A DNA stretch of 35,502 bases from an uncultured Ilumatobacteraceae bacterium (lineage in GTDB: Bacteria; Actinomycetota; Acidimicrobiia; Acidimicrobiales; Ilumatobacteraceae). The position numbers and the translations under genes were made by a program. Location of the stretch: assembly GCA_965601935.1 (NCBI GenBank), contig CBFCWZ010000001.1:1-35502 (forward strand), in the 5' to 3' direction. This document shows positions 4,120-30,123 of the stretch, piece by piece. Every line of letters begins with the position of its first letter. The first letter of the stretch is position 1. Below the pieces are notes generated by a model. It was not told the DNA's origin and did no database searches. It saw only the letters and a list, made by a program, of their open reading frames with translations.

Positions 4120-4149
4120 CCGAACGCACGACCGATGCGCCGACTCGAG

Positions 4150-5529: not shown

Positions 5530-5697
5530 ACTCGTCGTACGAACGCAGGTGCCGGCCTGTGTGGACCCAGTGCACGAGCCGAGAAGCCCGATCCAGGTCG
5601 CCCGCACCGACGTGACGGGTGTCCCGCGCAAAGCAGTTGCACAGCCACCGGGGCTGACCCAGAATGAAGCGGGGTCAGATTCGGGGAAGGGGCCGAG

Positions 5698-7392
5698 ATG
5701 CCAACACTCGTCGTACCAGGGGTTTCCGTCGAGGCGCGCTTCGACGTTCTCCCGCCACTCCCGGCCGCCGCCGGCATCCTCGGCGTGGCCGGCATCGTCG
5801 ACCGTCCACCACCCGAGGGCGACACCGTCGGGGTGTCGCGGGTCAGCGAACTCGTCGAACTGCTCGGGCCCGGTACCGAGTCGTCGATGCCGGAGGCCGT
5901 CCATGCCCTCCGCAACGGCTGCCGTGAGGTGATCGTGTCGCCGGTGCACAGCGGCGGCCCGGCGCGGGCCACCCTCGTCAACGCCGACGACGATCCGGCC
6001 GTCCGGTTGCGCGCCCGATCGAACGGCGAGTGGGGCAACGACCTCAGCGCCGACGTCCGGGTGGTCACCAACGCCGCCGGTGCCGTCGTTCGGGTCACGC
6101 TGCGCGTCCTGCGCTCCGGCGCCGAGGTCGAGCGATTCAACGATCTCGTGGTCGACGCGTCCGATCCAGCCGACCTGTTCGGTGCGGTCAACCGGCTGTC
6201 GAAGACGGTCGTGGCCGTCGATCCAGGTTTCGACAGCGAGGATCCAGCGGCCGGCGACTACGCGCTCGACGAGGCGGGTACAGCCGAGGTGCCCATGGAC
6301 GGTGCACCGGGCACACCGCTGATGGACGTCCGGACACTCCCCGGAGTCGATTCCGACGGGATGACCGTGCGGATCCAGGGCAGCGACGACGAACTCAGCG
6401 TCGAGATCCTCCGCAACGGGGCCCGCCAGGAGCTCTTCGAGGACCTGACGATGGACCCCGACAGCGCCCGCCATCTCCCGGCCCTCCTCGCCGCCGAGAG
6501 CCGCCTCGTCCACGTCACCGGCCGGAGCAGCCTCGACGCGAACGCCCGGCTGCCGGCGGCCACCACGGTCCCGGTCGAATTCACCGACGGGTCCTCGCCG
6601 AGCGTCGACGACTACCGCGAGGCGATCGACCTCCTGGCCGACGACCCGCGGATCGATCTCGTGCTGGCCGCGATCGAGCCCGGCCGTGACACGTCCGACG
6701 TGGTGCAGATCCATCAGGCGCTCGTCGGACACGCCGTCACGATGAGCGACAACGGAGCGCCGCGGATCGCCTTCGGCTCGATCACTCCCGACGACGCGGG
6801 CGACCTCGACGGAATCCGCGATCACTCGGCGGCGGTACGCAACCGCCGGATGGTACTCGTCGCCCCGCCAGGGAGTGCCGGTGCCGTGGCGGGGCTCGTC
6901 GGACGAATGACGCCGATGGACTCCCCGACGTTCAAACCGATCCCGATGCACGGGATCCCGCCGTCCAGCTATCGGGAGAGCCAGCTCAACCGCCTGCTCG
7001 GCCCGTCGACGAACCTCTGCGTCGTTCAGCAGCGGGCCGGTCGCGGAGTGATCGTGCTGAAGGGCATCGACACGACCGGGGACCAGATCTCGGTGACCCG
7101 TGTGGCCGATCAGGCGATCCGCGAGACGAAGGCGATCGCCGAGAACTTCATCGGCCGCCTCAACTCCGACGAGGCCCGCGCCGCCCTGCGTCAGCAGTTG
7201 GTGGCCACGTTCACCCGGATGGAGCGGGCCGGGGCGTTGGTACCGAGCACCGACGGCAGCGACCCCGCCTTCGTCGTCGACGTCTACTCGACGCAGCAGG
7301 ACTTCGCCCAGGGCATCGTGCGGATCGACATCGCGGTCCGACCGGTCCGGTCCATCGACTACGTCTACGCCACGATCCGCGTCAAGAACTGA
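5698..7392 (+). CDS. Contractile tail sheath protein (CIS sheath)
   Basis: ATG preceded by GGGGAAGGGG. The N-terminus MPTLVVPGVSVEA resembles the sheath-typical PGVYVEE start. The C-terminal region GRGVIVLKGIDTTGD...ISVTRVADQAIRETKAIAENFIG...FVVDVYSTQQDFAQGIVRIDIAVRPVRSIDYVYATIRV resembles the conserved sheath C-terminal domain. It is 564 aa and is the first gene of the tail cluster. Confidence 0.85.
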   Translation: MPTLVVPGVSVEARFDVLPPLPAAAGILGVAGIVDRPPPEGDTVGVSRVSELVELLGPGTESSMPEAVHALRNGCREVIVSPVHSGGPARATLVNADDDPAVRLRARSNGEWGNDLSADVRVVTNAAGAVVRVTLRVLRSGAEVERFNDLVVDASDPADLFGAVNRLSKTVVAVDPGFDSEDPAAGDYALDEAGTAEVPMDGAPGTPLMDVRTLPGVDSDGMTVRIQGSDDELSVEILRNGARQELFEDLTMDPDSARHLPALLAAESRLVHVTGRSSLDANARLPAATTVPVEFTDGSSPSVDDYREAIDLLADDPRIDLVLAAIEPGRDTSDVVQIHQALVGHAVTMSDNGAPRIAFGSITPDDAGDLDGIRDHSAAVRNRRMVLVAPPGSAGAVAGLVGRMTPMDSPTFKPIPMHGIPPSSYRESQLNRLLGPSTNLCVVQQRAGRGVIVLKGIDTTGDQISVTRVADQAIRETKAIAENFIGRLNSDEARAALRQQLVATFTRMERAGALVPSTDGSDPAFVVDVYSTQQDFAQGIVRIDIAVRPVRSIDYVYATIRVKN

Positions 7393-7411
7393 TCACGAGG
7401 GAACTTCCGCC

Positions 7412-7792
7412 ATGCCTACGATCTTCGCAGCCAACGAGAGCTCCGTCCTCGTCGACGGTGAGCCCCTACTCGGCGTCCAGGCGATCGACTACCGGACCCG
7501 CCGGGCACGCTCGAACCTCTACGCGCTCGGCAGCGCCGAACGGATCGGGGTCACCTCGGGCGCCCACGACGTGGAGGGTCGCCTCCGCGTTGCCTCCGCC
7601 AGCGGTGCGCTCGACGGGCTGGAGGAACAGCAGACATTCCAGGTGGTCGCCAACCTCCGCCACGGCGAGACCGAGGTGACGGTCACCTTCGACGACTGCT
7701 ACCTCACCGAGAAGACCTTCGACCTCGGGGTGGGCGGTCATGGTGAGGCCGTCTACAGCTTCAGCGCCACCCGGGTCCGCGAGGAGCACTGA
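7412..7792 (+). CDS. Tail tube protein (inner tube subunit)
   Basis: ATG at 7412, preceded by GAGGG (7396-7400). It encodes 126 aa, is beta-rich and lies directly after the sheath gene. The size and position are those of Afp1/gp19/Mu gp40-type tube proteins. Sequence: ...SSVLVDGEPLLGVQAIDY...VEGRLRV...TVTFDDCYLTEKTFDLG... Confidence 0.65.
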   Translation: MPTIFAANESSVLVDGEPLLGVQAIDYRTRRARSNLYALGSAERIGVTSGAHDVEGRLRVASASGALDGLEEQQTFQVVANLRHGETEVTVTFDDCYLTEKTFDLGVGGHGEAVYSFSATRVREEH

Positions 7793-7837
7793 CGTGCAAG
7801 CGCCGGGACGGGTGCGCGTGCCGGCGTCGGAGACGCC

Positions 7838-9172
7838 GTGACGGTCGTCATCGACCTCGCCGCCGGGGAGATGCGCGTCGCCGGTTCGGTGTTGGGTGGC
7901 GTGCGTGACGCCTCCGAGCACGGCCTGGGTGCGTTGGCCGTCGGCGACCAGGGCGTCGTCGCACCGGTCACGTTCGGGCAACGAGCCCAGCTCTGCGCAC
8001 TGCACCCTGAGCCGCGTGCCCTCGCCACCGCGCTCCTCGCCACCGCCGCCGTCGGCCGCCCGCTCGGCGACCACGACGACCGCGTCCTGCTGGAGGTTCT
8101 CGCCCTGCGGCTGGCGGGAGCGCGTTCGGAGGCCGATCGGGCCGGTTTCGGCGACGTGGCCGTCACGATGAACAGGGTGTTCGGCTGGCCGGCGTCCGAA
8201 CTCCTCACCGCGCCGGCTCACCTCGTCGACGAACTCGCGGCCAGCGTCCCGGATGACAACGTCCCGTCCACGCCATCGGCCGATGGAGGCGAACGCTCCG
8301 GATGGGTCCGCTACGAGTTGCGTGGCGGCGCCGACGACGAGGACCCGGATGCCGCAGAGCCGGCTGACGCGCTCGACGAACTCCGTGACCTCCTCGCCGG
8401 CGATCTCCTGCGTCGCGGTCGCTCCCCCCTGAGCAGGAGCCTCCGGACCACGTTGCAGCAGGCCGGGGATGCGACCGCTCCCCTTGACCCGACCGAGCCG
8501 AGTGGTGCGACCGAAGCGCGTGGTGCGACCGAGCCGTCTGGCACGAGCGGGCACACGGACGAACCGCCGGCCACCTCGCCGAAGGGCACCGTCACGACCT
8601 CGTCCGGAACCAGGTCGGAGACCGCGCCGACCACGGCGGACGAGCCCCGTCGGCGCGCGCCGAGGAGTGTGCACGACACCGGCGAGGCGGCTGGGTTCGT
8701 CGAGAACGCGGTGAGCGACCCGCAAGTGAACGGTGCTCACGGGGTCGGCGGCCGCGGCGACCTCGAGTCGCCCGCCACCCCAGCAGCCGTCCCGCCCGAC
8801 CCCGCGCCCTCACCCGGTGGCTGGCCGATCGGTGAGGTGACGGAGCAGGCGGCCACCCCGGCCGACGACCGAGCGGAGCCCGCGCCGCGGTCGTCGAGCG
8901 TGCAGCCCGGCCACTCGTCCCGACGAGTGCCGTCGCGAACACAACCGCCGCTCGACACCTCGCCTCCCGACACCCACCGGCCCGACGTCGGGACCCGATC
9001 CGCCCTCGTCGACTCGGCGTCGTCGGTCGCTCCGGTCGACGAGCTGTCGCTCGGGACGTCGGCGCATCTCGGGCCCGCGGCACGGGTCCGCCCGACACTC
9101 GACGACCTCACGGAGGAACTGGCCGTCGCCCTCGACGACGAGGCCGACCTGCGAGGGCTGCAGCGATGGTAG
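7838..9172 (+). CDS. Hypothetical protein with a tail-assembly-chaperone-like N-domain and a long P/S/T/R-rich disordered region (tape-measure position)
   Basis: GTG at 7838 after GGAG. The N-terminal ~140 aa ends in FGWPASELLTAPAHLVDEL, reminiscent of the LGWxPxEFWxxTPxEL motif of GTA/Mu-type tail assembly chaperones. About 270 aa of low-complexity PST-rich sequence follow, then an acidic C-terminus LDDLTEELAVALDDEADLRGLQRW. It lies between the tube gene and the hub genes. Confidence 0.55.
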   Translation: MTVVIDLAAGEMRVAGSVLGGVRDASEHGLGALAVGDQGVVAPVTFGQRAQLCALHPEPRALATALLATAAVGRPLGDHDDRVLLEVLALRLAGARSEADRAGFGDVAVTMNRVFGWPASELLTAPAHLVDELAASVPDDNVPSTPSADGGERSGWVRYELRGGADDEDPDAAEPADALDELRDLLAGDLLRRGRSPLSRSLRTTLQQAGDATAPLDPTEPSGATEARGATEPSGTSGHTDEPPATSPKGTVTTSSGTRSETAPTTADEPRRRAPRSVHDTGEAAGFVENAVSDPQVNGAHGVGGRGDLESPATPAAVPPDPAPSPGGWPIGEVTEQAATPADDRAEPAPRSSSVQPGHSSRRVPSRTQPPLDTSPPDTHRPDVGTRSALVDSASSVAPVDELSLGTSAHLGPAARVRPTLDDLTEELAVALDDEADLRGLQRW

Positions 9173-9837
9173 CGAGCGACTCGATGCCGATCGTCGGCGA
9201 CATCACGCTGAGCGCGGTCCAGCAGATCGACCACGTCGTCGACGCCGGATTCGTGACCGCTCCCGTCCCGGGTCTCGACGGCGACCCGGTCCAGCGAGCC
9301 GGCCGTGGCTCCCACGCCATCCGGATCCGCGGTGTGTTGCGGGGCGACACCGCGCTGGACGATCTCGCCGCTCTCCAGACCGCCGCCGCGGACGGCGAGG
9401 AGGTCTCGTTCGCGGCGGACATCACCACTGCGCTCGAGCTCCAGAAGGTGGTTCTCACCGACCTCCGGGTCCGGGAGGTGGCCGGGTTCGAGCAGATGGT
9501 TTCCTACGAGCTCGACCTCCTGGAGAGCCCACCGCTCCCCCCACCGGCCGAAGTGAGTGGCTTCGGTGGCCTCGACGGCTTCGGTCTCGGCGACCTCGGA
9601 TTCGACACCGACATCATGGGCGACCTGGCCGGCCTCGCCGACGACCTCTCCGGGGCCGTCGACGCCGTGATGGATGCCGCCGACCAGCTCCAGGCCCTCG
9701 CCTCACTCGCCTCGATCGACGTCGGCGGCCCACTGGCGCCGTTGGGCGAATCGGTCGGAGCGGCCTCCGACCTCGCGGCGGGGTTCGGATCGATCGCCTC
9801 GTCCTTGTCCGGACTGCTCGGAGGGGGCGACCCATGA
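9166..9837 (+). CDS. Baseplate hub-associated protein (Mu gp43 / DNA-circulation-N-like position) with a G/D/L-rich tail
   Basis: ATG at 9166 overlaps the previous stop (alternative ATG at 9184). The N-domain is ...GRGSHAIRIRGVLRGDTALDDLAALQTAAADGEEVSFAAD...VVLTDLRVREVAG...YELDLLES. The low-complexity tail is SGFGGLDGFGLGDLGFDTDIMGDLAGLADDL... It sits immediately upstream of the gpD-like hub, as in Mu. Confidence 0.45.
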   Translation: MVASDSMPIVGDITLSAVQQIDHVVDAGFVTAPVPGLDGDPVQRAGRGSHAIRIRGVLRGDTALDDLAALQTAAADGEEVSFAADITTALELQKVVLTDLRVREVAGFEQMVSYELDLLESPPLPPPAEVSGFGGLDGFGLGDLGFDTDIMGDLAGLADDLSGAVDAVMDAADQLQALASLASIDVGGPLAPLGESVGAASDLAAGFGSIASSLSGLLGGGDP

Positions 9838-10832
9838 CTCTCGTCTTCGGCGCCGTCGCCACCCTCGGGTCGTTGCGCTACGACACGCACGTGACGACCG
9901 CCCGTGTGTCGCTCGGTCTCGCCCCACGGGCGGGATCGACCCGCGTCACCCTCTCTCCACACGTGCGCGTCGACGCCGAGCCGGGCGACGACGCATCACT
10001 CCTGCTCCACGGGGAGCGCGCCGACGTCGAGACCTTCAGCGGCGTCGTCGTGGCGGTCGACCGCGACCTCGACCGCACCACCGTCACCCTCGTCGACGCG
10101 CTCGGCAGGCTCGCCCGATCGCGGCCCGGAACCACATTCGAGCAGCAGACCGCGGCGGCGATCATCGCCGCCCTGGCCGACGAGGAGGGGATCCCGACCG
10201 GTTCGATCGAGGCCGACACGGAGCTGCTCTCGTACGTCGCCGACCAGGGGCGGACCGCGCTGGAGCACACCGCCCGTCTCGCCGGATGGGCCGGCGCATG
10301 GGCGTCGAGCGCTCCCGATGGCGGGCTCACCGTGGCCCCCCTGCCCACGGGTCCTGCCGAACGGGCCCTTCGCTACGGCCGCGAGATCGCCGCGCTGCGG
10401 GTGCGTCGCCGGGAGACCGACGCCGACGTCGTCTGGGCCGGGTCGGGCCCGGCCGGGAACGTCGCGGCGCCCGACGCCCACGTCCACACCACCACCGTCC
10501 TGCCCGACGGGGCGCCGGGCCCCGCCCCACGGACGCGACGCGTCCCGGCGCCCGCCCTGCGCACACCGGCGGCAGCCACCGACGCAATCGCGGCAGCAGC
10601 CACCCGCAACTCCGGGGCCCGGCTCGTCGCGACCTGCTGGCTCCAGCCCGAGATCCGACCGGGGGCCTCGATCGAGATCGCCGATGCCCCCCAGCCCGAC
10701 TCGCTCGGACCCTGGTTCGTCACGTCGGTCACCCACCAACTCGGCCCGGGCCCACGTGGCGTCACCCGGATCGAGGCCGATCGTCTCGACCAGGGCGGCG
10801 GGCTGCTCGACGACCTCGGAGGGCTCCTGTGA
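9834..10832 (+). CDS. Phage late control gene D-like baseplate hub protein
   Basis: ATGA start/stop overlap at 9834-9837. It is 332 aa with gpD-like features, including TTFEQQTAAAIIAALADEEGIP..., LSYVADQGRTALEHTARLAGWAG and the C-terminal WFVTSVTHQLGPGPRGVTRIEA. It is followed directly by the gpV-like spike. Confidence 0.7.
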   Translation: MTLVFGAVATLGSLRYDTHVTTARVSLGLAPRAGSTRVTLSPHVRVDAEPGDDASLLLHGERADVETFSGVVVAVDRDLDRTTVTLVDALGRLARSRPGTTFEQQTAAAIIAALADEEGIPTGSIEADTELLSYVADQGRTALEHTARLAGWAGAWASSAPDGGLTVAPLPTGPAERALRYGREIAALRVRRRETDADVVWAGSGPAGNVAAPDAHVHTTTVLPDGAPGPAPRTRRVPAPALRTPAAATDAIAAAATRNSGARLVATCWLQPEIRPGASIEIADAPQPDSLGPWFVTSVTHQLGPGPRGVTRIEADRLDQGGGLLDDLGGLL

Positions 10833-11488
10833 GCGCCACCCTCTTCGACTCGGTGGCGCGCATCGCCCGCCACGAGGCGTCAGCCCGCCCGACGGTGTCG
10901 ATCGGCGTCGTCGTCGACACGTTCGACGGCAGCGGTGCTCCCGCCGACCATGCCGTCAGCGTCGAACTGCGCGAAGCGGGCATCGTGCTGCCGCGGGTTC
11001 CGCTCGCAGTCGGCGCACTCGGTTTCGCCGCGCTCCCGGCACCCGGCGACCTCGTGGTCGTCGCCTTCGCCGACGGCGACCATCACGCACCGGTCGTGGT
11101 CGGCCGGCTCTACAACTCCGATCTCGAGCCACCCCCACACGGTGAGGACGAGGTCGTCCTGCACCTGCCACCAGGTGCCTCGACACCGGAGGTGGCGGCC
11201 ACCATCCGGCCGACAGAGCCGACCGTCCGGCTCCAGGTCGGTGCCAATGTCGAGATCGAGGTGGCCGGGGACGCGATCCGCCTGACCGCAGGGGACGCGA
11301 CGGCTCTGGTCGAGGCAACCGGTGGGGGCCGCACGGAACTCACCGTCGGAGACGCCACCCTCGCCATCAGCGGCCGCGGTGACATCGAGATCAGCACCAG
11401 CGGGAAGTTCACGGTGCAGGCCACCGAGGTCGACATCCAGGGTTCCGCATCGGCAACCGTCACTGCGCCACAGGTGAAGGTGAACTGA
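10829..11488 (+). CDS. Baseplate spike protein (gpV / gp5-OB-fold, VgrG-like C-terminal beta-helix)
   Basis: GTGA overlap at 10829-10832. The OB-fold signature is SIGVVVDTFDGSG...VSVELREAGIVLPRVPLAV...PAPGDLVVVAFADGDHHAPVVVGRLYN. Repetitive beta-helix-like segments follow: VRLQVGANVEIEVAGDAIRLTAGDATALVEA...LTVGDATLAISGRGDIEISTSGKFTVQATEVDIQGSAS. Only the last 219 codons of track ORF 9674-11488 are real. Confidence 0.8.
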   Translation: MSATLFDSVARIARHEASARPTVSIGVVVDTFDGSGAPADHAVSVELREAGIVLPRVPLAVGALGFAALPAPGDLVVVAFADGDHHAPVVVGRLYNSDLEPPPHGEDEVVLHLPPGASTPEVAATIRPTEPTVRLQVGANVEIEVAGDAIRLTAGDATALVEATGGGRTELTVGDATLAISGRGDIEISTSGKFTVQATEVDIQGSASATVTAPQVKVN

Positions 11489-11889
11489 TGGGAGCACCCG
11501 CTGCCAACGGTTCCTCGATGGTCATCGCCACCGACATCCACATCGTGTTGGTGCCGTCCCCCGGCGGGCCCATCCCGATCCCACTCCCCCACCCGTTCCT
11601 GGGGCCGATCAGCGCGGCGCTGGTCCCCACCGTCCTGATCGGCGGTCAACCGGCGGCAACGGTCGGTTCGATGGCGAGCAACCAGGTACCGCACCTCCCG
11701 ACACCCCCTGGCATCGCGCTCCAACGGCCCCCGACCAACCAGGCGACGGTGCAGGTCGGCAGCGCCTCGGTCCTCATCGGAGGACAGCCCGCCGCCCGCA
11801 ACGGTGACACCGCCACGACCTGCAACGACCCGGCCGATGCGCCCGTCGGCACCGTGATCGCCCCGACTCCGACAGTGATGTTCGGATGA
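11488..11889 (+). CDS. PAAR-domain spike tip protein
   Basis: TGATG overlap. It is 133 aa with two PAAR-type repeats, VLIGGQPAATVGS and VLIGGQPAARNGDTATTCN. It lies immediately after the spike gene. Confidence 0.85.
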   Translation: MGAPAANGSSMVIATDIHIVLVPSPGGPIPIPLPHPFLGPISAALVPTVLIGGQPAATVGSMASNQVPHLPTPPGIALQRPPTNQATVQVGSASVLIGGQPAARNGDTATTCNDPADAPVGTVIAPTPTVMFG

Positions 11890-12422
11890 GCGACGTCGAC
11901 CTGGGCCGCGACCTCCGGGTGCTACGCGGGCCACCCGGGTTGGGCGCGCACGATGCCGCGCTGCTCGACCTCCGGCCGCGGCCGCGTCCCACACAGCAAC
12001 CGCGGCAGCCCCGATCGGCGCGGCGACAACCCACCGGCGCGTCCGAGCAGGGCTGGGCGCCCGAACCGCCGGGTGCCGGGGAGGTCGTCGACCTCGAGGT
12101 GATCGAGGGCCGGGAGAACCTGGCCCAGTCACTGGTGCTGCGCCTGCTCACCCCGCTCGGTTCGCTGGCCGACCTGGGCCATGCCGGCTATGGGTCGCGG
12201 CTGGGCGAGCTGATCGGACGCCGCAAGACCGAGTCGTTGCGCGGCCTGTGCCGGGCATTCATCCTCGAGGCACTGGAACGCGAGCCGCGTATCGCCCCCC
12301 GGGCCGTGTCGATCAGGTTCGACCTGCAACGAGAGACGTCGTCGTCGTTCGTGGTGGAGGTCGCGATTCGCCCGGTCGACGGCGGTGAGCCGATCACCGT
12401 GGGCGTGGAGGTGCCGCTGTGA
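11886..12422 (+). CDS. gp25/GPW-like baseplate wedge protein
   Basis: ATGA overlap. The core EGRENLAQSLVLRLLTPLGSLADLGHAGYGSRLGELIG...LRGLCRAFILEALEREPRI... fits the gp25-like lysozyme-fold family. An unusual ~70-aa R/P/Q-rich N-terminal extension precedes it. Confidence 0.8.
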   Translation: MSDVDLGRDLRVLRGPPGLGAHDAALLDLRPRPRPTQQPRQPRSARRQPTGASEQGWAPEPPGAGEVVDLEVIEGRENLAQSLVLRLLTPLGSLADLGHAGYGSRLGELIGRRKTESLRGLCRAFILEALEREPRIAPRAVSIRFDLQRETSSSFVVEVAIRPVDGGEPITVGVEVPL

Positions 12423-14131
12423 GCTTCACCCCGCGCGCCTATCCCGACATCGTGCGCGATGTTCTGACCACACTCACCGGCGGCACGGTCCGTGAGCAGA
12501 CGACGGCACCGGTCGAGGGGCCGATCGTCCTCGACCGCCTCGCCGACCGCCCGGTCCGACGTGTCTCCCACCTCGAGGGCGTGACCCTCGTCGGCGACAC
12601 AGAAGTGGCGGTCCGGTTCACCGACGCCGACTTCGAGCTCGTCGACACCGACGGCACCGGCACCTTCGACGCGATCTCGTTCCGGGACACGGGTCGGTCA
12701 CCGGTGCCGGGGAGCCGGCTCACCGTGAACTACTACCCGGTGGAGACGCGTCCCGCTCCGGTCACCGACCTGAACGTCGGGTCCGTCGTCCGCACCCTCC
12801 TCGAGTCGGTTGCCCGCGAGCTCGCGCTCGAGGAGCAGTACCTGGAGCGGATCTACCGCTCGGCCTTCCTCGAGACGGCGGAGGGCGGCTCACTCGACCG
12901 TGTCGCCGCCCTCGTCGGCGAGACGCGACTCCCGGCGGGTCATCCACTCGTCCGCGTCCGCTTCGCGCGCAACGCCACGACCGGCGGTCGCATCACCGTG
13001 CCGGCCGGAACGATCGTCACCGACGGTGACGGGAACCGCTTCCGCACCTCGGCCGTGCTGGTCCTCGAGCCGGGCGAGGCGTCCCGCGAGATCGTGGCCG
13101 TGGGTGTCACGAAGGAGACGGCGCCGGTCGCTGCGGGTGCGATCGACCGTCTGGAGGTGCTCGTCGCCGGTGTCTCGGCGGTCACGAACCCGGAGCCTGC
13201 CGCCCGGGCGGCAGCACCGGAGACCGACGACGCGTTCCGGCGGCGAACCCGCGGTGCGCTGCACGGAGTGGTCCGGGGAACGCTCGATGCGCTCCGCTAC
13301 GGCGTCCTCGGCGTGCCCGGCGTGAAGGACGTCACCCTCGTCGAGTTCCCGAACGGGGTACCCGGCGAGGTCCGCATCGATGTCGCCTACGACCAGCCGG
13401 GCAACACCGGGGCCGAGCAGGCGGTCGCCGAACGGATCGCCCAGCTCCGCCCGGCCGGGATCCGGGTGCTCTCCGCCGCCGCGGCCCATCGACGCGTCCA
13501 CACCACCATCGCCCTCGTACTCACCGGCACGGGCGTCTCCGGTGCCGAACTCGGTGAGCTCGAGGACGGGGTCGAGGAACGGGTCGCGGCCGGTCTCGCC
13601 GCCATCGCGCCGGGTGGCACCATCCGATCGAACCGGCTCGTCGCCACAGCCCTGGAGGACGCTCGGATCGCCGACGTGGCGATCACCTTCGCCGACGACG
13701 GCGGAAACCCGATCGAGTCGCTGACCCTCGCCGAGGGCGAGGTGCTCGAGGTCGTCCGTCCGTTCTCCTTCCCCCCGCCCGAGTCCGAGAGCGTCTCCGA
13801 GGACACGGTCCTCACCACAGCCGACGTCGATGCCCTCCTTCCCGTCACGCCCGAGATCGGGGTCACGATGGCCGAGGTGCAGTCGGCGGTCGAGTTGGCA
13901 TTCACGTCCCATCTCGGCTCACGTTCGCCCACCGCACCGCTGACCCTCGACGGGGTTGCCACCGCCATCCGCGACGACTCGCGCTTCGCGCTCGATCGCG
14001 CAGCCTCCACGGTCACCGTCGAGCACCAGGGCCGCTTCGTCCAGCTGATCGACGACGGTGGCAGCTACGCACCGGGAAGCGGCGAGACCCTGCGCCTCCG
14101 CACCCTCGACGTGATCGAGGCAACCTCGTGA
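12419..14131 (+). CDS. Baseplate J-like (gp6/gpJ) wedge protein
   Basis: GTGA overlap. It is 570 aa. Baseplate_J-like stretches include VGSVVRTLLESVARELA, ETAEGGSLDRVAALVGETRLPAGHPLVRVRFARN...GRITVPAGTIVTD, VSAVTNPEPA...ETDDAFRRRTRGAL and LGVPGVKDVTLVEFPNGVPGEVRIDV. Confidence 0.75.
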   Translation: MSFTPRAYPDIVRDVLTTLTGGTVREQTTAPVEGPIVLDRLADRPVRRVSHLEGVTLVGDTEVAVRFTDADFELVDTDGTGTFDAISFRDTGRSPVPGSRLTVNYYPVETRPAPVTDLNVGSVVRTLLESVARELALEEQYLERIYRSAFLETAEGGSLDRVAALVGETRLPAGHPLVRVRFARNATTGGRITVPAGTIVTDGDGNRFRTSAVLVLEPGEASREIVAVGVTKETAPVAAGAIDRLEVLVAGVSAVTNPEPAARAAAPETDDAFRRRTRGALHGVVRGTLDALRYGVLGVPGVKDVTLVEFPNGVPGEVRIDVAYDQPGNTGAEQAVAERIAQLRPAGIRVLSAAAAHRRVHTTIALVLTGTGVSGAELGELEDGVEERVAAGLAAIAPGGTIRSNRLVATALEDARIADVAITFADDGGNPIESLTLAEGEVLEVVRPFSFPPPESESVSEDTVLTTADVDALLPVTPEIGVTMAEVQSAVELAFTSHLGSRSPTAPLTLDGVATAIRDDSRFALDRAASTVTVEHQGRFVQLIDDGGSYAPGSGETLRLRTLDVIEATS

Positions 14132-15432
14132 GTGACGGGGCCGAGGCAATGTCCGCACCACCGACGGAGCGAGCGCGCTCACTGGCGTCCCGACTGCCGC
14201 TCCTGTACCGCGACGGCGAGATCCTCAACTCGCTGCTCGACACGGTCGGGCTCCAGCACGAGATCGTCGACGAGAACGCACGTCGTGTGCAGCGCCGCTT
14301 CTGGTTCGACACCGCCCCCGACTTCGACGACGCCGCCAAGCTCGGAGCGCTGCTCGACATCGAGCCCGAGCCCTGGCAGGAACTCGGCGAGTACAGGGCA
14401 TGGTTCCACGCCCTGCGGACCGCCCGTCTCCGTCGCGGTGCGGTCACGGTCGCCGCGCTGCGCGGTTTCGTCGAGGACTACGCCGACGCCTTCGAGACCG
14501 CCGACGACATCGAACTGCTGCCGGATTTCGACACCTGGAACGACGCACCCGTGACCATCGGGCACGCATTCGTCGAGAATCCCGTTCGCGCCCACCGCGC
14601 CGAGCTCGGCGGGCCGACCGGACCGTCGCCGCTCCACCGGCAGACGATCCGCAACGGAGGCCTCGAGGCCACCCCGCTCCACCTGCTGGCCACCGGCACG
14701 GCGAGCGGACCCGAGTACCTCCCTGTTGTCGTCAACGTGACGACGGGGACCGCGCTCGTGCATCACGGGGTCGTCGAGCCCGGACAGCGGCTCTGGATCC
14801 ACTCCCGCGACGACGGGCTCGTGGCCGATCTGGAGGGACGCGACGTGTCGGACCGGTTCCGCACTGTCACCCATGTGGCGCCGGGCGTCCCGTGGGAGGA
14901 CACCCAGACCGACACGGCCGCTCCGCTGATCCTTCGACCTGGCGACAACGAACTCTGGTTCCTCCCCGTCGCGCACTACGACGAACCGGGTCTCGACCGC
15001 GTCCTTCTCGGCCTCGCTGATCTCGACCTGGAACAAGGCCGGTGGAACGAGACCGGTTTCGACCAATCGTTGTTCTTCCAGGACCCTGCGCTCGTTCTCC
15101 AGCTGCTGTGGTCGGAGGCCACCCCCGCGAGCCTGCACGTCGACCTCGACGGTGGTGGACTGCTCAGCCCGGCGGGACGCCTCGACGAGGCCCTGGAGGA
15201 CCGCAGCCAGCTCGAGGCCTCGCTCGCACGGGGTGTCGCATCCCTGTCCGCCGCCGGCGTGGAGTCAGAGGTGCGGCTGCGTCCACACGCATCCAGCCAG
15301 CGCCAACGCGACCGCCTGCGACTCGTGCTTCCACTCATGCAGCACGAGGCGGGAACGGTCGGGATCGACCATCTCCCGGACGCAGGTGGCGTCTTCGGCG
15401 TCACCGATTTCAACGACAGCACGTACCGGTAG
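14128..15432 (+). CDS. Phage tail protein I-like (P2 gpI / Mu gp48 type) baseplate wedge protein
   Basis: GTGA overlap (alternative ATG at 14149). The N-terminus SLASRLPLLYRDGEILNSLLDTVGLQHEIVDENARRVQRRFWFDTAPDFDDAAKLGALLDI fits the LPxxYR...FDxxTAP...L pattern of the gpI-like tail protein domain. It lies directly after baseplate J. Confidence 0.6.
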   Translation: MSDGAEAMSAPPTERARSLASRLPLLYRDGEILNSLLDTVGLQHEIVDENARRVQRRFWFDTAPDFDDAAKLGALLDIEPEPWQELGEYRAWFHALRTARLRRGAVTVAALRGFVEDYADAFETADDIELLPDFDTWNDAPVTIGHAFVENPVRAHRAELGGPTGPSPLHRQTIRNGGLEATPLHLLATGTASGPEYLPVVVNVTTGTALVHHGVVEPGQRLWIHSRDDGLVADLEGRDVSDRFRTVTHVAPGVPWEDTQTDTAAPLILRPGDNELWFLPVAHYDEPGLDRVLLGLADLDLEQGRWNETGFDQSLFFQDPALVLQLLWSEATPASLHVDLDGGGLLSPAGRLDEALEDRSQLEASLARGVASLSAAGVESEVRLRPHASSQRQRDRLRLVLPLMQHEAGTVGIDHLPDAGGVFGVTDFNDSTYR

Positions 15433-15445
15433 GCGAGGAGGAATC

Positions 15446-15949: not shown

Positions 15950-16004
15950 TGTCCTCCATCCAGCCGGCTGCGCCGGCACCGCTCCGATCCCCGAGGAGGG
16001 AACC

Positions 16005-16967: not shown

Positions 16968-16994
16968 GCCGCGTCAACCGCGAAGGAAGGGTTC

Positions 16995-21055: not shown

Positions 21056-21056
21056 C

Positions 21057-24000
21057 ATGACAGTGATCGAACAGCTGGCGACGCTGGACTTCGCCACCAT
21101 CGACGACGCACTCGGGCGCGTGCGCACCGCCGTCGACGTCGATGGCGAACTCGACCTCGGTTCCCTCGATGTCGGTTCACTGCTCGGCGATCTCGGACCG
21201 CTGATCGAAACGGTCGAGCAGATCGACAACGACCCTGAGGCGATGCTCGTGCTCGCCCGGTCGGTGCTCGACGACCTCGGCGCGATGTTCGACCTCCCCG
21301 ACGTCGCCGAGTTGGGTGAGCTGGTGGAGGCCATCGCCGCGCTGACCGATCTGATGACCGGTGTCGTCGACGTGCTCACGAGTGGTGACGGACATGAGCT
21401 CGTCGATCGGCTCCTCACCGAGGTCGGGCAGTCACTCGACCTCTCGACGCTCATCGCCGACGTCGTGGGTCGCTCCGCGGACGCCCTCGGCTTCGACGTT
21501 CCCGACGTGCTGGAGGACGCCCTCGACCAGCTCGCCCGGCTCGGCGGGGGCATCGACGACCCGGCTGTTCTGGCCGAGGTCGTGTTGCGGAGCATCGGCG
21601 GGTTCGATCTGGGCGCGATCTCGGCGCTGGCCGTCGGCCTCTCGGGGTCGCTCTCCATCGTCGCCGGTGCAGGCGACCACTCGCGCGTCGCCGGGCTCCT
21701 GGTGTCGCTCGACGTGGAGATCGACGCGGCGATCGCCGCCGCCGGACCGGCCGACGACCTCGAGATCGAGACGCTGGTCGGTGCCGTCGAGCAGGTCTCG
21801 GACACCCTCGACCTGCTCGCCTCGACCGAGTTGCCACGTCTCGTGAACGGCGTTGCAGCCGATCTCCGGAGCGCCCGCAACCAGCTCACCGACCTCGACC
21901 TGGCGTCGAGCCTCGACGACCTGCGGGCCCATCTGCCCGAACGCGGCATCGACTCGCTCGAGGTGCTCGTCGGGCCGCTGCGCGAGATCGCCGCCGCCCT
22001 CGACACCGTCACCTCCGGGTCGATCACCGCCGGCCTCGCCGAGGCCCGTGGAGAGCTCACGAAGTTCGCCACGGAGGGCCCTCTCGGGGATCTGCTCGAC
22101 GGCATCGAACGGGGACAGCAGCTGGTCGTCCGCCAGATCCGTGCACTCCCGCTCGAAGAGGTACGCGACACGGTGGTCACCGCACTGCGCGAGCTCCAGA
22201 ACGAGATCCTCACGTTCCGAGGTTTCGACGTGCTCGACGAGATCGTGGCACCGATCCGTGCACTCGTTCCGCCGCTCCAGGAGCTCGACACGTCGTCCGT
22301 CGAGAACGCCGTCGACGAACTCGTCGCGATGGTCAACGGGGTCTTCTCGGACTTCCCGATCGAGCAACTCCGCGACGCAGTCGACGAGGTCGTCGACCCG
22401 CTCGGCGAGATCATCGATGAGGCGACACCACTGATCGAGGGGATCGCCGACGAACTGGAGGCGCTCGTGGTCCAGATCGACGCGATCGACTTCGACGCCG
22501 CAGGGGCGCAGGTACTGGAGGCGCTGTCGGCGATCCGCTCCGAGGTGCAGGGGGCACTCGACGGTGGCCAGGTGCCCGACGCCCTGAAGGCCGTGATCGC
22601 CGGCGTCGCGTCGACCCTGAAGGCGATGGACCTCGGGGTCGAGCTGAGCGAACCCTTCGAGGCCGCCATGGCCGAGATCGACGTCGGCGCGCTGCTCGAA
22701 CCGATCGAGGAACTGTGGTCCGACCTCGGTGCCGCTCTGGAACGGGTCACGCCCGAGGCCCTGATCGGTGAACTCGACCCACCCTTCGACGACCTGCTGG
22801 CGAAGCTCGACGACATCTCCCTCGCCCCGCTCACCGACGCGCTGAGTGACGTGTTCGACCGCCTACTGGGCGCGATTCGCAGCGCCGACCCACGTACCCT
22901 CATCGCTCCGCTCGAAGCAGAATTCCAGCAACTGCTCGCCACGCTACGAGGGCTGCTGGATCCCGCTCCTCTGTTCGCTCCGCTGCGCCACGCGTACGAC
23001 GAGTTGCACGGAAGCCTCTCCTCGATCGACGTCGAGGCCGCGATGAACGAGGTGCTCGGGGGCATCTCCGACTCGCCGACCATGCTCACCGAGGCAGTGG
23101 GGCAGGAACTCGGCCGCCGCGCCGAGGGTGGTGCCGCCCTCCCCGAGGCCACCGACGAGCTGTTCCGCTTCGGCGACATCATCCGGCCCCTCGCCGCCCT
23201 CGTGGCCGAGATCCGCGGCCGCCTGCACGGTCTCGGCCGGGACGTCGTGGGTGAGGGCCTCGGCCTCGTCGCCGACGCGACCAGGACGCTCCGGTCACTG
23301 CTCGACCCGGCCGACGGAATGGCGACCCGGCTGGCAGCTGCCCTCGACGAGCGCCGGGGCTGGTTCGACGCGACCGCCGGTGACGGTCCGCTCGCCGCCA
23401 CCCGGGCGCGACTGGTCGGCCTGCAGTCGGCGCTCGACGGGCTCACACTCGAGGCGGCTGCCAGGGCGCGCCTCGACGCGGCCATCGGCCCCGTCCGGCT
23501 GGAGGCGCGGGTGGAGCTGGAGGCGTCCGTGACCGCACCGGCGCTCGACGAGGCCGGGCGCGTCGATGCTGCGGCCTCGCCGGGCGGCGTCGGGCGCAGC
23601 ATCCGGCTGCTGACCCGCGCCCTCGACGAACTCCTCCCCGGCCCGCTGCTCGATGAACTCGTCGACCCGCGTGAGGAAGTGGCCGGCTTCATCGACGCAC
23701 TCATCGACCCACTCGATCCTGCGCCGCTGGTGCAGGAGCTCGATCAGATCGGCGAGCAGATCTCCACCACGCTCGCCGGGTTCGTCGACGAGCTCAGCGT
23801 CGGTCTCCTCGATCTCTGGGACGAGCTGATCGCAGGGATGCAGCCGCTCATGCCGACGAGCCTGGCGGCGCGGCTCCAGGCCGTCGTGACCGCGGTCGCC
23901 GAGGAGTTGACGGCGCTCGACCCCGGGGTCATCGAGGTGGAGGCTCGTCAGGTCGTCGACGTGGCGGTGGACCTGCTCGCCCTGCATTCGCCGGCCACCG

Positions 24001-24350
24001 TCGCGGAGGAGTTGGGTGATGTCTTCGATGTCGCCGTGGCAATCGTCGAGGAGCTCGATCCCGCAGATCTCTTGGGCGATCTCGATCCCTTCGCCGGCCT
24101 GCGCTCCGACCTCGAGTTGCTGCGGCCGTCCGTCGTGCTGGCCCCATTGGTCGAGCGGACAGCGGCCCTCACCGACGCGCTCGAACTCGTCGCGTCGATC
24201 GACCTCGACATCGCCGGAGAGCTCGTCGCCCGGCTCGAGGCAGCATTCTCCTCCGTGCTCGAGGGCGTGGAGCGCGAGTGGGACGGCCTGTTGGACGAAC
24301 TCAGTGGGCTGGCGGGCGGAGCCTCGACGAGTGTCAGCGTGGGAACGTGA
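21057..24350 (+). CDS. Hyper-acidic, Leu/Asp/Glu/Ala-rich helical-repeat protein (1097 aa), function unknown
   Basis: ATG lies 1 nt after the previous stop. By my reading there are only 4 Lys and no Cys in 1097 aa. About 23 Asp+Glu against 3 Arg occur in the first 100 residues. Recurrent degenerate motifs include L(D/E)P..L...L..L...LD.. (e.g. LLEPIEELWSDLGAALERV, LIAPLEAEFQQLLATLRGLLDPAPLFAPLRHAYDEL, LIDPLDPAPLVQELDQIGEQI). Confidence 0.7.
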   Translation: MTVIEQLATLDFATIDDALGRVRTAVDVDGELDLGSLDVGSLLGDLGPLIETVEQIDNDPEAMLVLARSVLDDLGAMFDLPDVAELGELVEAIAALTDLMTGVVDVLTSGDGHELVDRLLTEVGQSLDLSTLIADVVGRSADALGFDVPDVLEDALDQLARLGGGIDDPAVLAEVVLRSIGGFDLGAISALAVGLSGSLSIVAGAGDHSRVAGLLVSLDVEIDAAIAAAGPADDLEIETLVGAVEQVSDTLDLLASTELPRLVNGVAADLRSARNQLTDLDLASSLDDLRAHLPERGIDSLEVLVGPLREIAAALDTVTSGSITAGLAEARGELTKFATEGPLGDLLDGIERGQQLVVRQIRALPLEEVRDTVVTALRELQNEILTFRGFDVLDEIVAPIRALVPPLQELDTSSVENAVDELVAMVNGVFSDFPIEQLRDAVDEVVDPLGEIIDEATPLIEGIADELEALVVQIDAIDFDAAGAQVLEALSAIRSEVQGALDGGQVPDALKAVIAGVASTLKAMDLGVELSEPFEAAMAEIDVGALLEPIEELWSDLGAALERVTPEALIGELDPPFDDLLAKLDDISLAPLTDALSDVFDRLLGAIRSADPRTLIAPLEAEFQQLLATLRGLLDPAPLFAPLRHAYDELHGSLSSIDVEAAMNEVLGGISDSPTMLTEAVGQELGRRAEGGAALPEATDELFRFGDIIRPLAALVAEIRGRLHGLGRDVVGEGLGLVADATRTLRSLLDPADGMATRLAAALDERRGWFDATAGDGPLAATRARLVGLQSALDGLTLEAAARARLDAAIGPVRLEARVELEASVTAPALDEAGRVDAAASPGGVGRSIRLLTRALDELLPGPLLDELVDPREEVAGFIDALIDPLDPAPLVQELDQIGEQISTTLAGFVDELSVGLLDLWDELIAGMQPLMPTSLAARLQAVVTAVAEELTALDPGVIEVEARQVVDVAVDLLALHSPATVAEELGDVFDVAVAIVEELDPADLLGDLDPFAGLRSDLELLRPSVVLAPLVERTAALTDALELVASIDLDIAGELVARLEAAFSSVLEGVEREWDGLLDELSGLAGGASTSVSVGT

Positions 24351-24351
24351 G

Positions 24352-30123: not shown

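Follow-up and report, generated by a model that had tools for sequence, protein, structure and literature searches.

The window, meaning the whole 35,502-nucleotide stretch of DNA analysed here, carries 17 genes on the plus strand at positions 5698–30123, as delimited by third-position GC frame analysis and start-codon inspection. This confirmed the close same-strand arrangement described in an earlier note: the widest gap, 55 nt, lies between g11 and g12, and the genes overlap by 1–7 nt at nine junctions. Independent gene calls on related contigs reproduced the gene number and sizes. The genes are the following.

g1, 5698..7392, plus strand: tail sheath, 564 aa
g2, 7412..7792, plus strand: tail tube of the XkdM/diffocin type, 126 aa
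g3, 7838..9172, plus strand: protein at the tape-measure position with a disordered P/S/T/A-rich middle, 444 aa
g4, 9166..9837, plus strand: Mu gp43-like / DUF6046 baseplate hub-proximal protein, 223 aa
g5, 9834..10832, plus strand: baseplate hub of the gpD / Mu gp44 / YqbQ type, 332 aa
g6, 10829..11488, plus strand: central spike of the gpV type, 219 aa
g7, 11488..11889, plus strand: PAAR spike tip, 133 aa
g8, 11886..12422, plus strand: gp25/gpW-type wedge protein, 178 aa
g9, 12419..14131, plus strand: Baseplate_J / gp6-type wedge protein, 570 aa
g10, 14128..15432, plus strand: conserved protein, gpI/gp7/TssG by position only, 434 aa
g11, 15446..15949, plus strand: small conserved protein of PHROG 5417 (no known function), 167 aa
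g12, 16005..16967, plus strand: fibre-like protein, 320 aa
g13, 16995..18554, plus strand: fibre-like protein, 519 aa
g14, 18555..19460, plus strand: predicted tail terminator/cap ending in an Ig-like domain, 301 aa
g15, 19460..21055, plus strand: predicted all-beta multi-domain protein, 531 aa
g16, 21057..24350, plus strand: acidic helical protein, 1097 aa
g17, 24352..30123, plus strand: giant terminal YD/Rhs protein, 1923 aa

Profile or fold evidence supports the roles given for g1, g2, g4–g9 and g14; those of g3, g10–g13, g15 and g16 are guesses from position or composition. As the earlier note had anticipated, profile searches recovered the sheath, hub, spike, PAAR, gp25 and J families, and the tube through its relatives. 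The sheath, a single 564-aa protein, matched Pfam Phage_sheath_1C above the cut-off (E = 2.4e-8) and PHROG 279 'tail sheath' over residues 40–563 (E = 1.5e-19); it has 552 relatives at E ≤ 0.001, with 61–100% identity among the 120 matches listed. The window's g2 had no Pfam match on its own. Among 34 relatives, 12 matched Pfam Phage_tube_2 (best 4.5e-5), four DUF2001, and one each Phage_tube and Hcp, and the g2 family profile aligned over the full length with the diffocin tube CD1364 (8v3t, E = 0.0066) and an XkdM-like protein (6gkx, E about 0.007). The tube identity is thus transitive, as these matches come from relatives or the family profile and not from the window protein. Phage_T4_gp19, the Afp1/5-type tube family, matched neither the window's g2 nor appeared among the 19 families reported for the 34 relatives, a list that also contains unrelated single matches.

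The hub and wedge genes gave similar signals. For g4, the Pfam matches to DUF6046 (E = 2.2e-4) and DNA_circ_N (E = 0.0099) were both below the cut-off, and DUF6046 matched seven members of a mixed set (A12) that contained seven g4 sequences (best 1.7e-6). The hub g5 matched Pfam Phage_GPD (E = 1.8e-9), YQBQ (5e-6) and Gp44-like_2nd (1.5e-4), and NCBIfam VgrG_rel below the cut-off (5e-12). The spike g6 matched Pfam Phage_base_V (E = 2.2e-5) as well as PHROGs 9992 and 430, while its matches to the NCBIfam VgrG and phage_P2_V models were all sub-threshold. The tip g7 matched the Pfam PAAR_motif (E = 2.1e-13) and PHROG 281. Hub and spike are separate genes, of gpD and gpV type, in the window and in all relatives, with no fused Afp8/VgrG. 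For the wedge, g8 matched PHROG 975 (E = 1.9e-14), PHROG 43 (E = 1e-7) and, below the cut-off, Pfam GPW_gp25 (E = 7e-4); g9 matched PHROG 6 (E = 2.3e-39), its homologues carry precomputed Pfam Baseplate_J matches, and it is 25–31% identical to J proteins of Bacillus, Meiothermus and halovirus phages. The gene identities proposed earlier held for the sheath, tube, gp43-like protein, gpD, gpV, PAAR, gp25 and J, and the assignment of g10 as 'I' is positional only: g10 overlaps g9 by 4 nt and is 42–71% identical in all related loci aligned, but matched no family or PDB entry and did not resemble Mu gp48.

The AlphaFold2 model of g14 (pLDDT 82.9), searched against the PDB with Foldseek, resembled the Pvc16 terminator (6j0f, E = 1.5e-4), terminator and cap matches ranging overall from E 1e-4 to 1e-2. 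They included the PlPVC1 cap (9qgn), the pyocin R2 collar (6u5j/6u5f), the S. coelicolor CIS cap (9gts), the Anabaena CIS cap (7b5i), lambda gpU (3fz2, TM-score 0.61 on the target), T5 p142 and the Mu terminator (9khy); the monocin cap is likewise similar in fold. The TM-scores are moderate because g14 carries an extra Ig-like domain. None of 32 g14 family members matched DUF4255, the Afp16/Pvc16 N-domain, at E ≤ 1; the modelled fold is nonetheless of the terminator type and identifies g14 as a predicted tail terminator/cap.

Several genes resemble little that is known. In an alignment of six homologues, the N-domain of g3 is ordered and its P/S/T/A-rich middle disordered, and a conserved motif, LAxxLDDEADLRGL, lies towards the C-terminus. 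The compositional half of its earlier description as a chaperone-like, PST-rich protein thus stood, but the chaperone half did not: g3 had no match in Pfam, PHROGs, NCBIfam or PDB, nor to Mu gp42, and no chaperone gene lies in the 45-nt gap between g2 and g3. The small g11 matched PHROG 5417 over its full length (E = 3e-13), with no convincing PDB match (best E = 0.1). Alignment of g12 shows an N-terminal beta domain, a PGEVIRAxDWN...HxH motif and a helical tail, with no family or PDB match; g13 has the N-terminal DWN...HxH motif in common with it, followed by some 400 residues in which A, L, R, E and D are abundant, and its N-domain had no PDB match. The AlphaFold2 model of g15 (pLDDT 86.9, pTM 0.73) predicts with confidence a stack of beta-sandwiches. 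Its best 50 matches by E-value in each of PDB and BFVD had query-normalised TM-scores below 0.2, and none of them therefore covers the whole protein; they are local beta-sandwich or jelly-roll likenesses, among them actinophage 'minor tail proteins'. The length of g16 is nearly constant, 1068–1102 aa in loci with an intact copy. It matched Pfam Baculo_PEP_C below the cut-off (E = 9.6e-7). In the mixed set A12, 13 members matched that family, and in the PDB the g16 profile found generic helical bundles only; g16 is a candidate length ruler or lumen cargo.

The giant g17 contains YD/Rhs repeats at about aa 150–400 and an Rhs core end at aa 425–490. It matched Pfam RHS_repeat (E = 4.5e-8), NCBIfam YD_repeat_2x (E = 3.4e-9) and Rhs_assc_core (E = 0.024), and the PDB Rhs proteins 8h8a and 8qjb (E = 4.5e-9; matched chains of 1065–1530 aa); the match to NCBIfam RHS_core (E = 1.1e-11) was sub-threshold, at 43 bits against a cut-off of 2000. 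The core-end motifs R.LDPxTGxFxxPDP and NNPxxxxDPTG aligned in 10 g17 homologues and are conserved across phyla. The YD region spans only about 300–450 aa; a closed Rhs cocoon takes about 1000 aa or more, and the region is too short to form one. After the Rhs core follow about 1400 residues with hydrophobic helices at aa 490–545 and about 1299–1318 and a DHELxHTxQ..WGP motif at aa 1237–1251, of which DHELxHTxQ is invariant across phyla. Homologues from different phyla can be aligned over this C-terminal region as far as about aa 1650, and it is not polymorphic; the far C-terminus lies outside the relatives' alignment, because their loci end at the flank limit. Two of nine members matched Pfam eCIS_core (DUF4157), at E = 0.17 only and sub-threshold. 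In the window and in one related locus (L016), g17 is the last gene of the operon and no immunity gene follows: next to it lie a convergent kinase gene and opposite-strand ORFs, respectively. The chances that g17 is a delivered effector seem evenly balanced to us; the conservation of its C-terminal region suits a structural or membrane-anchoring role as well as it does an effector.

These results revise the view of the distal part of the operon as unassignable, given the terminator/cap g14, which had gone unrecognised, and the YD/Rhs repeats, Rhs core end and HExxH motif of g17. The statement that three large distal proteins have no structural homologues fails for g17, which matches Rhs proteins, and survives for g15, with none found, and g16, with generic helical bundles only. 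Nor are the distal genes an unusual addition: they are conserved members of a 17-gene family that several phyla have in common.

That family occurs in the same order in at least four phyla, Actinomycetota, Chloroflexia, Acidobacteriota and Proteobacteria. Genes g4–g17 are colinear in each of the 16 contexts that cover them, drawn from Actinomycetota, Acidobacteriota, Chloroflexia, and Alpha- and 'delta'-proteobacteria; a Variovorax context covers g1–g13. Among the matches listed, sheath identity across phyla is 61–87%, for example in Mycolicibacterium, Chloroflexia, Acidobacteriota and Variovorax. The colinearity together with this level of identity points to repeated horizontal transfer of a working machine. 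The same 17-gene limits recur wherever both operon ends are visible, and all 17 genes are intact at 40–90% identity over large evolutionary distances, which argues for selection. The hosts include both monoderm and diderm bacteria. BTAD regulators adjoin the operon in three phyla.

Housekeeping genes surround the operon: they lie on either side of it in the window and, in five other genomes (a Nitriliruptorales MAG, Variovorax, M. agri, a 3.3-Mb contig and Chloroflexia), on its upstream side. In the window, the flanking ORFs scanned encode PhoX, a YncE-type beta-propeller, a membrane protein with three transmembrane segments, fructosamine kinase, two LacI regulators, a GH16 enzyme and an ABC permease. 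Consistent with the earlier note, these ORFs (very small ones left out) contained no capsid, portal, terminase, integrase or lysis family, and the window locus has no tRNA and no flanking direct repeats of 10 nt or more. Head and packaging genes were absent within 5–10 kb in the window and in the five other genomes. The sheath and g11 had no tblastn match in 50,697 phage genomes (INPHARED), and sheath relatives were found neither in IMG/VR nor in PLSDB plasmids. All recognisable families of the operon are phage-tail families in the order of a Mu-type tail module, as they would be in a myovirus prophage, ordinary or decaying, that had only its tail module here and its head and packaging genes at another site. 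That explanation is already largely refuted and now hardly credible, given the housekeeping flanks, the constant limits and intact genes, the lack of integrase, tRNA or att-like repeats, and the lack of phage relatives; the earlier conclusion that this is a headless contractile nanomachine rather than a prophage is upheld.

We compared the locus with the known contractile systems. With phage Mu it shares the order sheath, tube, X, gp43-like protein, gp44 (gpD), gp45 (gpV), gp46 (gp25), gp47 (J), a gene at the gp48 position, and fibres, as well as the Pfam families DNA_circ_N, Phage_GPD/Gp44-like, Phage_base_V, GPW_gp25 and Baseplate_J. The proposed likeness to Mu gp43–gp48 therefore applies to order and families but not to sequence, as Mu L, M, gp42, gp44, gp47 and gp48 showed no significant similarity to window proteins by hhalign or BLASTP. 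In contrast to Mu, the window has no chaperone or head genes, a PAAR gene is inserted, and the terminator gene lies downstream rather than upstream of the sheath.

PBSX/diffocin-type tails and R-type tailocins show the same gene order (sheath, tube, X, hub, spike, gp25, J, I-position gene and fibre-like genes), and the nearest solved relatives of the g2 tube, diffocin CD1364 and XkdM, belong to this group, as do the YqbQ/gpD hub and the separate gpV spike; the fold of the g14 cap is also that of the pyocin R2 collar and monocin cap. The locus could on this basis be an R-type tailocin: a domesticated myophage tail that is set free by lysis and kills related bacteria by puncture and depolarisation, without protein cargo. 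Its g15–g17 would then be receptor-binding or accessory proteins. The simple-myophage core with its YqbQ-like hub match, the similarity of g14 to the pyocin and monocin structures, and the fibre-like genes after the wedge genes would all fit. Yet neither the 17 proteins nor the scanned flanking ORFs include a holin, endolysin or other lysis cassette, six related contexts show no holin or endolysin among their precomputed Pfam matches, and neither INPHARED nor IMG/VR contains a related phage that could be the parent, J being only 25–31% identical to distant phages. Tailocin families are not known to reach beyond a genus or family, whereas this one spans phyla with strict colinearity and sheaths 61–87% identical. 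The PAAR tip and the extra conserved large proteins g15–g17 also set the locus apart, and a PAAR tip together with a giant Rhs/HExxH protein such as the 1923-aa g17 is not known to us from any described tailocin. With no tape measure, assembly chaperone or tail-fibre chaperone family recognised among the 17 genes, we regard a tailocin as quite improbable. No tape measure, assembly chaperone, ATPase or lysis gene was identified that would account for assembly control and particle release.

The Afp/PVC-type eCIS, catalogued or described in dbeCIS (Chen et al. 2019, PMC6899500) and by Geller et al. 2021 (PMC8213781), whose core domains we used for the tests, are likewise headless chromosomal operons with sheath, tube, spike, PAAR, gp25 and J genes and, late in the operon, a gene for a Pvc16-fold cap. 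Geller et al. 2021 (PMC8213781) reported nearby BTAD regulators and an HExxH giant gene at the 3′ end, often without an immunity gene; here, too, several members have operon-adjacent BTAD regulators and a 3′ giant HExxH gene without an immunity gene. The differences are that the window operon lacks an Afp15-like AAA+ ATPase (neither the 17 proteins nor the scanned flanking ORFs gave an AAA match), a gp19-type tube, a DUF4255 sequence match and a fused Afp8/VgrG, that the gene order of its first half is Mu/PBSX-like, and that DUF4157 matched at E = 0.17 only. The earlier comparison with the Streptomyces-type CIS layout cannot be maintained, as those systems are Afp homologues and the window has a split hub and spike, no ATPase and no gp19-type tube or DUF4255 match.

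The Streptomyces davawensis CIS group with its Tme effector (Nagakubo et al. 2024, PMC11126660) has a similar distribution, with reported occurrence in Actinobacteria, Proteobacteria and Chloroflexota and in both monoderm and diderm hosts. It has a giant HExxH (DUF4157) protein with transmembrane helices and long disordered regions, associated with spike and PAAR. The group consists of Afp homologues (Afp1/5, Afp7, Afp8, Afp11) and is included in dbeCIS; its giant gene occupies the tape-measure position, with an EndA-like nuclease at its end (PMC11126660). In the window, by contrast, the giant gene comes last and has an Rhs core, and no nuclease was detected. One S. davawensis-related cluster is plasmid-borne (Nagakubo et al. 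2024, PMC11126660); pMYCSM01, a plasmid listed with the CIS proteins of that study, had no tblastn match to g1 or g9.

T6SS Rhs-PAAR effectors and Rhs toxins resemble g17 in having YD repeats and a core end (RxxDPxTGxFxxxDP ... NPxxxxDPxG) before the C-terminal region, and g17 is genetically linked to a PAAR and spike pair as the Rhs-PAAR effectors are. Unlike in those, PAAR is a separate gene, the YD region is short and no immunity gene follows, and unlike in Rhs polymorphic toxins, the C-terminal region is long and conserved across phyla. The window also differs from T6SS in having no membrane complex, TssK or ClpV: TssB/TssC two-part sheath, ClpV, TssJLM, TssK and TssA-like families all gave no match in it.

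The locus very probably encodes a CIS, and it fits none of the described classes tested (Afp/PVC eCIS, R-type tailocin, T6SS, Mu-type tail). We consider it likely that it is a complete headless CIS of a distinct lineage, with 17 genes colinear across phyla, producing an eCIS-like released particle. The earlier impression that the combination is undescribed agrees with the literature searched, in which we found no description of the lineage, though such a search cannot prove absence. More tentatively, and with somewhat less than even confidence, we propose an unrecognised CIS class: a horizontally spread, ATPase-free 17-gene module derived from simple myophage tails independently of Afp/PVC eCIS and T6SS, with a self-cutting Rhs/HExxH g17 that is delivered or anchoring and with g15 and g16 lacking known structural relatives.

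In the proposed particle, the g1 sheath would surround a tube of XkdM-type g2 starting on a hub of gp43-like g4 and gpD-like g5, and this hub would bear the gpV-type spike g6, sharpened by the PAAR protein g7. The wedges would consist of gp25-type g8 and J-type g9, possibly completed by g10, and the putative terminator/cap g14 would close the distal end. Genes g11–g13 and g15 may provide peripheral baseplate components and target-binding fibres, g12 and g13 probably as trimers with HxH metal sites and helical shafts, while g16, helical and of constant length, and/or g3 could occupy the tube lumen as a ruler or plug. Target binding would open the baseplate and let the sheath contract, driving tube and spike through the target membrane. 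As a payload, g17 may cleave itself at the Rhs core end, at about residue 487, yielding a fragment of roughly 1400 residues with the hydrophobic helices and the HExxH metallopeptidase-like motif.

We lean slightly towards a particle that acts outside the producer cell. The converse would be a cell-bound or cytoplasmic CIS that stays in its producer or fires outward in a T6SS-like manner, with g17, and possibly g16, as a membrane anchor; the Streptomyces CIS particle, as Casu and colleagues reportedly found in 2023, stays inside its producer. An anchor would account for hydrophobic helices beside conserved motifs in all phyla and for a long C-terminal region conserved like a structural part rather than variable like a toxin, and retention in the cell would agree with the lack of a lysis gene in or beside the operon and of an immunity gene after g17. 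The family is also unchanged between monoderm and diderm hosts, which share only the cytoplasmic membrane. We nevertheless think this unlikely: the window has no recycling ATPase and no TssJLM, TssK or TssA-like family; the fibre-like proteins, the predicted Ig-like domain on the cap and the modelled beta-sandwich stack resemble outward-facing binding modules; and the hydrophobic segments of g17 are weaker in non-actinobacterial homologues.

CIS are investigated for their part in mediating bacterial competition, symbiosis and programmed cell death, and they are under development as programmable protein-delivery tools. Because the CIS catalogues rest on Afp-type profiles that include the ATPase and the gp19-type tube, a lineage without them would be missed. 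The colinear 17 genes imply that the machine transferred is indifferent to envelope type. The family has a compact core in which hub, spike and PAAR are separate proteins, and three large conserved proteins, one of which, judged by its motifs, appears to join Rhs self-processing to an HExxH module. As cargo, g17 would rank among the largest conserved CIS payloads; as an anchor, it would represent a new mode of CIS attachment to the membrane. Cultured carriers open to experiment include Mycolicibacterium agri (M. agri above), Occultella glacieicola, Agromyces sp. ISL-38 and Variovorax sp. J22R133.

The locus at 5698–30123 is predicted to encode a complete headless contractile injection system (CIS), with sheath, tube, hub, spike and PAAR tip, wedge proteins and cap. 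As raw ORF lists were uninformative at the ~70% G+C of the window, we called genes from third-position GC phase and start-codon context and resolved 17 plus-strand genes (g1–g17) within this interval. The widest intergenic gap is 55 nt, at g11/g12, overlaps of 1–7 nt occur at nine junctions, and related contigs that were called independently gave matching gene numbers and sizes. The layout described in the earlier note, with 17 genes on one strand and gaps of 55 nt or less, proved accurate. The flanks encode ordinary chromosomal functions and contain the following features:

11–2338, upstream flank, PhoX
2806 to ~4200, minus strand, upstream flank, YncE-type beta-propeller
4135–5529 (probable start ~4320–4410), plus strand, 3-TM membrane protein directly upstream of the sheath gene, 168-nt gap
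from 30278, minus strand, downstream flank, fructosamine kinase
other flanking ORFs of the window: two LacI regulators, a GH16 enzyme and an ABC permease

The 3-TM protein (4135–5529) had no family match, and a Nitriliruptorales relative carries an unlike membrane protein of 242 aa at the same place (L001 9125–9853). As it is not conserved, we left the upstream protein out of the system.

Profile searches recovered the sheath, hub, spike, PAAR, gp25 and J families expected of the CIS that the earlier note had read here, and the tube through its relatives. The matches of the proximal genes were:

g1, sheath: Pfam Phage_sheath_1C, 2.4e-8; PHROG 279, 1.5e-19
g4: DUF6046 and a weak match to DNA_circ_N (N-domain of Mu gp43)
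g5, gpD / Mu gp44 / YqbQ-type hub: Phage_GPD, 1.8e-9
g6, gpV-type spike: Phage_base_V, 2.2e-5
g7, PAAR protein: 2.1e-13
g8, gp25-like: PHROG 975, 1.9e-14
g9, J-like: PHROG 6, 2.3e-39; Baseplate_J on homologues

The g2 protein of the window matched no family by itself. Searching 1.84 billion representatives with phmmer gave 99 relatives of it, and of those aligned, 12 of 34 matched Phage_tube_2 and 4 of 34 DUF2001, while the family profile matched the diffocin tube CD1364 and an XkdM-like protein, both over the full length. Because of these matches we assign g2 as the putative tube, an assignment that is transitive and made through the relatives, not the window protein. In simple myophage tails, a chaperone and a tape measure are encoded at the position where the operon has g3. 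In members of the g3 family (387–445 aa), an ordered N-domain is followed by a disordered middle rich in P/S/T/A and, towards the C-terminus, by a conserved LAxxLDDEADLRGL motif; g3 had no relatives in any library searched. The g10 gene overlaps g9 by 4 nt and lies at the gpI/gp7/TssG position, an identity unsupported by every family, PDB-sequence or Mu gp48 search run. Scanned against Pfam, 44 homologues belonging to g3, g4, g10, g12, g13 and g16 returned DUF6046 (for g4) and coiled-coil-type families only, DUF6046 matching seven sequences in a set that held seven g4 homologues. Profile search against PDB sequences gave nothing specific for g3, g10, g11, g12, the g13 N-domain, g16 or the HExxH region of g17.

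The Mu-like baseplate order claimed in the earlier note is borne out as an order, the operon matching Mu L-M-(41)-42-43-44-45-46-47-48, but it does not extend to sequence relatedness: direct comparisons of six Mu proteins (L, M, gp42, gp44, gp47 and gp48) with the window proteins found no similarity, and we rejected close kinship to Mu. The nearest solved relatives of the operon's tube are PBSX/diffocin-type proteins, and the resemblance to Mu is that of the generic gene order shared by simple contractile tails.

The distal part had been regarded as unrecognisable, a view that holds neither for g14, which the fold identifies as a terminator/cap, nor for g17, which has YD/Rhs repeats and an Rhs core end. 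A model of g14 built from 32 homologues (pLDDT 82.9) was searched with Foldseek and matched the eCIS/CIS proteins Pvc16, PlPVC1 cap, S. coelicolor CIS cap and Anabaena CIS cap as well as the phage and tailocin proteins pyocin R2 collar, lambda gpU, T5 p142, Mu terminator and monocin cap; the C-terminal domain gave Ig-like matches. Since the search returned tail terminators and caps, g14 is predicted to be the terminator/cap, and its gene comes towards the end of the operon, as it does in eCIS. By sequence g14 gave no match as a DUF4255 member, and its role was settled by the fold search instead.

We infer further a peripheral binding apparatus, a ruler and a payload of the CIS. The g12 and g13 proteins share a PGE(V/L)IxAxDWNxxVxA...P.xHxH segment followed by helical sequence:

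16386–16529, plus strand, shared HxH segment, g12 residues 128–175
17067–17219, plus strand, shared HxH segment, g13 residues 25–75

The two copies are clearly homologous by sequence and suggest that an attachment or collar module bearing a metal-binding HxH site was duplicated; the segment had no match in PDB sequences. The motif and helical tails are compatible with fibres, for which g12 and g13 are candidates only. A confident model of g15 (pLDDT 86.9, pTM 0.73) consists of stacked beta-sandwiches and showed no global match to PDB or BFVD folds among the matches listed. The g16 protein is acidic, with short helices and a nearly constant length (1068–1102 aa in loci with intact g16), and gave generic helical matches only in Pfam and PDB-sequence profile searches. 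Afp14 lies late in eCIS operons, and by analogy g16 could be the length ruler.

The giant g17 protein (1923 aa) carries YD/Rhs repeats and, at residues ~425–490, a canonical Rhs core end made up of R.LDPxTGxFxxPDP and, after it, NNPxxxxDPTG; this second motif reads FDPLSRPDLDG in the window. Beyond the core end lie ~1400 more residues, alignable across phyla to residue ~1650, in which hydrophobic helices occur together with an invariant DHELxHTxQ..WGP motif; this motif resembles DUF4157 (Pfam eCIS_core), the match being sub-threshold and found in two of nine members (E = 0.17). The protein differs from Rhs toxins in lacking a full cocoon, a variable toxin and an immunity gene; neither the window nor a Chloroflexia relative (L016) has an immunity-like gene 3′ of g17. 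In the latter, the g17 homologue (L016 15749–19058) appears as two ORFs of 390 and 806 aa, falls far short of the overall length seen in Actinomycetota and is followed by ORFs on the opposite strand, reflecting either a long-read assembly frameshift or a real split and truncation. For the 2276-aa homologue in the Nitriliruptorales MAG (L004 15969–20900), the precomputed Pfam list contains Tyrosinase. As this domain did not come up when we scanned the first 1644 residues, it would sit in the C-terminal part, a hint that g17 may vary at its C-terminal end.

That the locus is not a prophage, as the earlier note had argued, agrees with the absence of phage head and packaging genes from the flanks of six genomes and of relatives among phages and IMG/VR, and on these grounds we rejected the prophage reading; a prophage remnant is unlikely. 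The sheath and g11 had no tblastn match among 50,697 phage genomes, conserved sheath peptides found no relative in IMG/VR, and g9 shares no more than 31% identity with the J proteins of distant phages. The PLSDB plasmids gave no sheath match. A tailocin that carries no cargo is likewise unlikely, the operon differing from tailocins in having neither a lysis cassette nor a parent phage. None of the T6SS-specific parts are present in the window, and several defining features of Afp/PVC-type eCIS are absent: there is no ATPase, VgrG is not fused, and the gp19-type tube and DUF4255 features give no match among the window's proteins.

The chief alternative is a CIS that stays bound to the cell and would use g17 as its membrane anchor. 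In its favour, g17 has conserved hydrophobic segments and a non-polymorphic C-terminal region, lysis genes are lacking, and monoderm and diderm hosts alike carry the family. We favour a released, eCIS-like particle that would carry g17-derived material, because the cap g14 has an Ig-like domain, fibre-like and beta-sandwich proteins are present, the regulators are BTAD-type, like those reported for eCIS, and the HExxH giant gene lies at the 3′ end, where eCIS toxins are found (PMC8213781). The S. davawensis CIS group was considered for its similar cross-phylum distribution and its giant HExxH/TM/disordered protein, which is bound to the spike (PMC11126660). Unlike the operon, that group is made up of Afp homologues that dbeCIS includes. 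The plasmid pMYCSM01, listed with the group, showed no similarity to g1 or g9, its CIS not being found in the one 50-kb stretch scanned, and identity with this group was rejected. No description of the 17-gene family came up in word searches of open-access text, though an earlier one may exist.

Sheath relatives numbered 552 at E ≤ 0.001, the best 120 of the 552 being 61–100% identical; those with a named source come from, among others, Occultella, Mycolicibacterium, Agromyces, an Anaerolineae MAG, a Nanopelagicales MAG and Variovorax. Searching genomes with one peptide pattern from g14 gave 17 loci, in Actinomycetota (Ilumatobacteraceae, Nitriliruptorales, Mycobacteriaceae, Agromyces, Occultella) and elsewhere (Pyrinomonadaceae and other Acidobacteriota, Chloroflexia, an alphaproteobacterial MAG and a 'delta proteobacterium' MAG), and prevalence is underestimated because a single pattern was used. 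By tblastn, the g4–g17 order is kept in all loci spanning these genes, and Variovorax has g1–g13 in the same order. The nearest relatives of the window locus are Ilumatobacteraceae and Nitriliruptorales MAGs, the closest being an Ilumatobacteraceae MAG (g12 90% and g9 81% identical).

No integrase, tRNA or repeat marks the operon borders, and no Rfam element or flanking direct repeat of at least 10 nt was found at the window operon. The operon has 71.0% G+C vs 66.4% and 66.6% in the flanks, an excess of 4.5 points that is compatible with horizontal acquisition; with this excess as the only sign, a mobile-element signature was rejected. Scans of the operon ends found no sigma-70 promoter-like site, and the sole intrinsic terminator match was on the minus strand within the kinase gene (30349–30332). 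The 17 proteins and the upstream membrane protein (4135–5529) are all acidic (pI 4.1–6.8), and lysine is nearly absent from the 17 (0–2.5%), a composition that points to an actinobacterial host of very high GC, possibly one adapted to salt.

The genes upstream of the operon are housekeeping genes that vary by genome. Mutually homologous BTAD/SARP-type regulators (27–32% identical) immediately precede the sheath gene in Variovorax (L003 8727–9551), M. agri (L025 8797–9537) and a Chloroflexia MAG (L027 8826–9749), and a sigma-54 activator takes this place in another genome (L026 8207–9520); the window and its closest relatives have neither directly upstream of the sheath gene. Small ORFs of 71–79 aa, with no mutual similarity by BLAST, separate regulator and sheath gene in three genomes (L003 9733–9972; L025 9677–9892; L026 9752–9976) and have no counterpart in the 168-nt spacer of the window (5530–5697). 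A few kb upstream, three unrelated hosts carry secreted-protease genes on the opposite strand (L025 2306–3946, L026 5524–7446 and L027 6484–8457, all minus), with Peptidase_S8 in two genomes and an M36 with P_proprotein gene in the third, which may be a coincidence or accessory processing enzymes.
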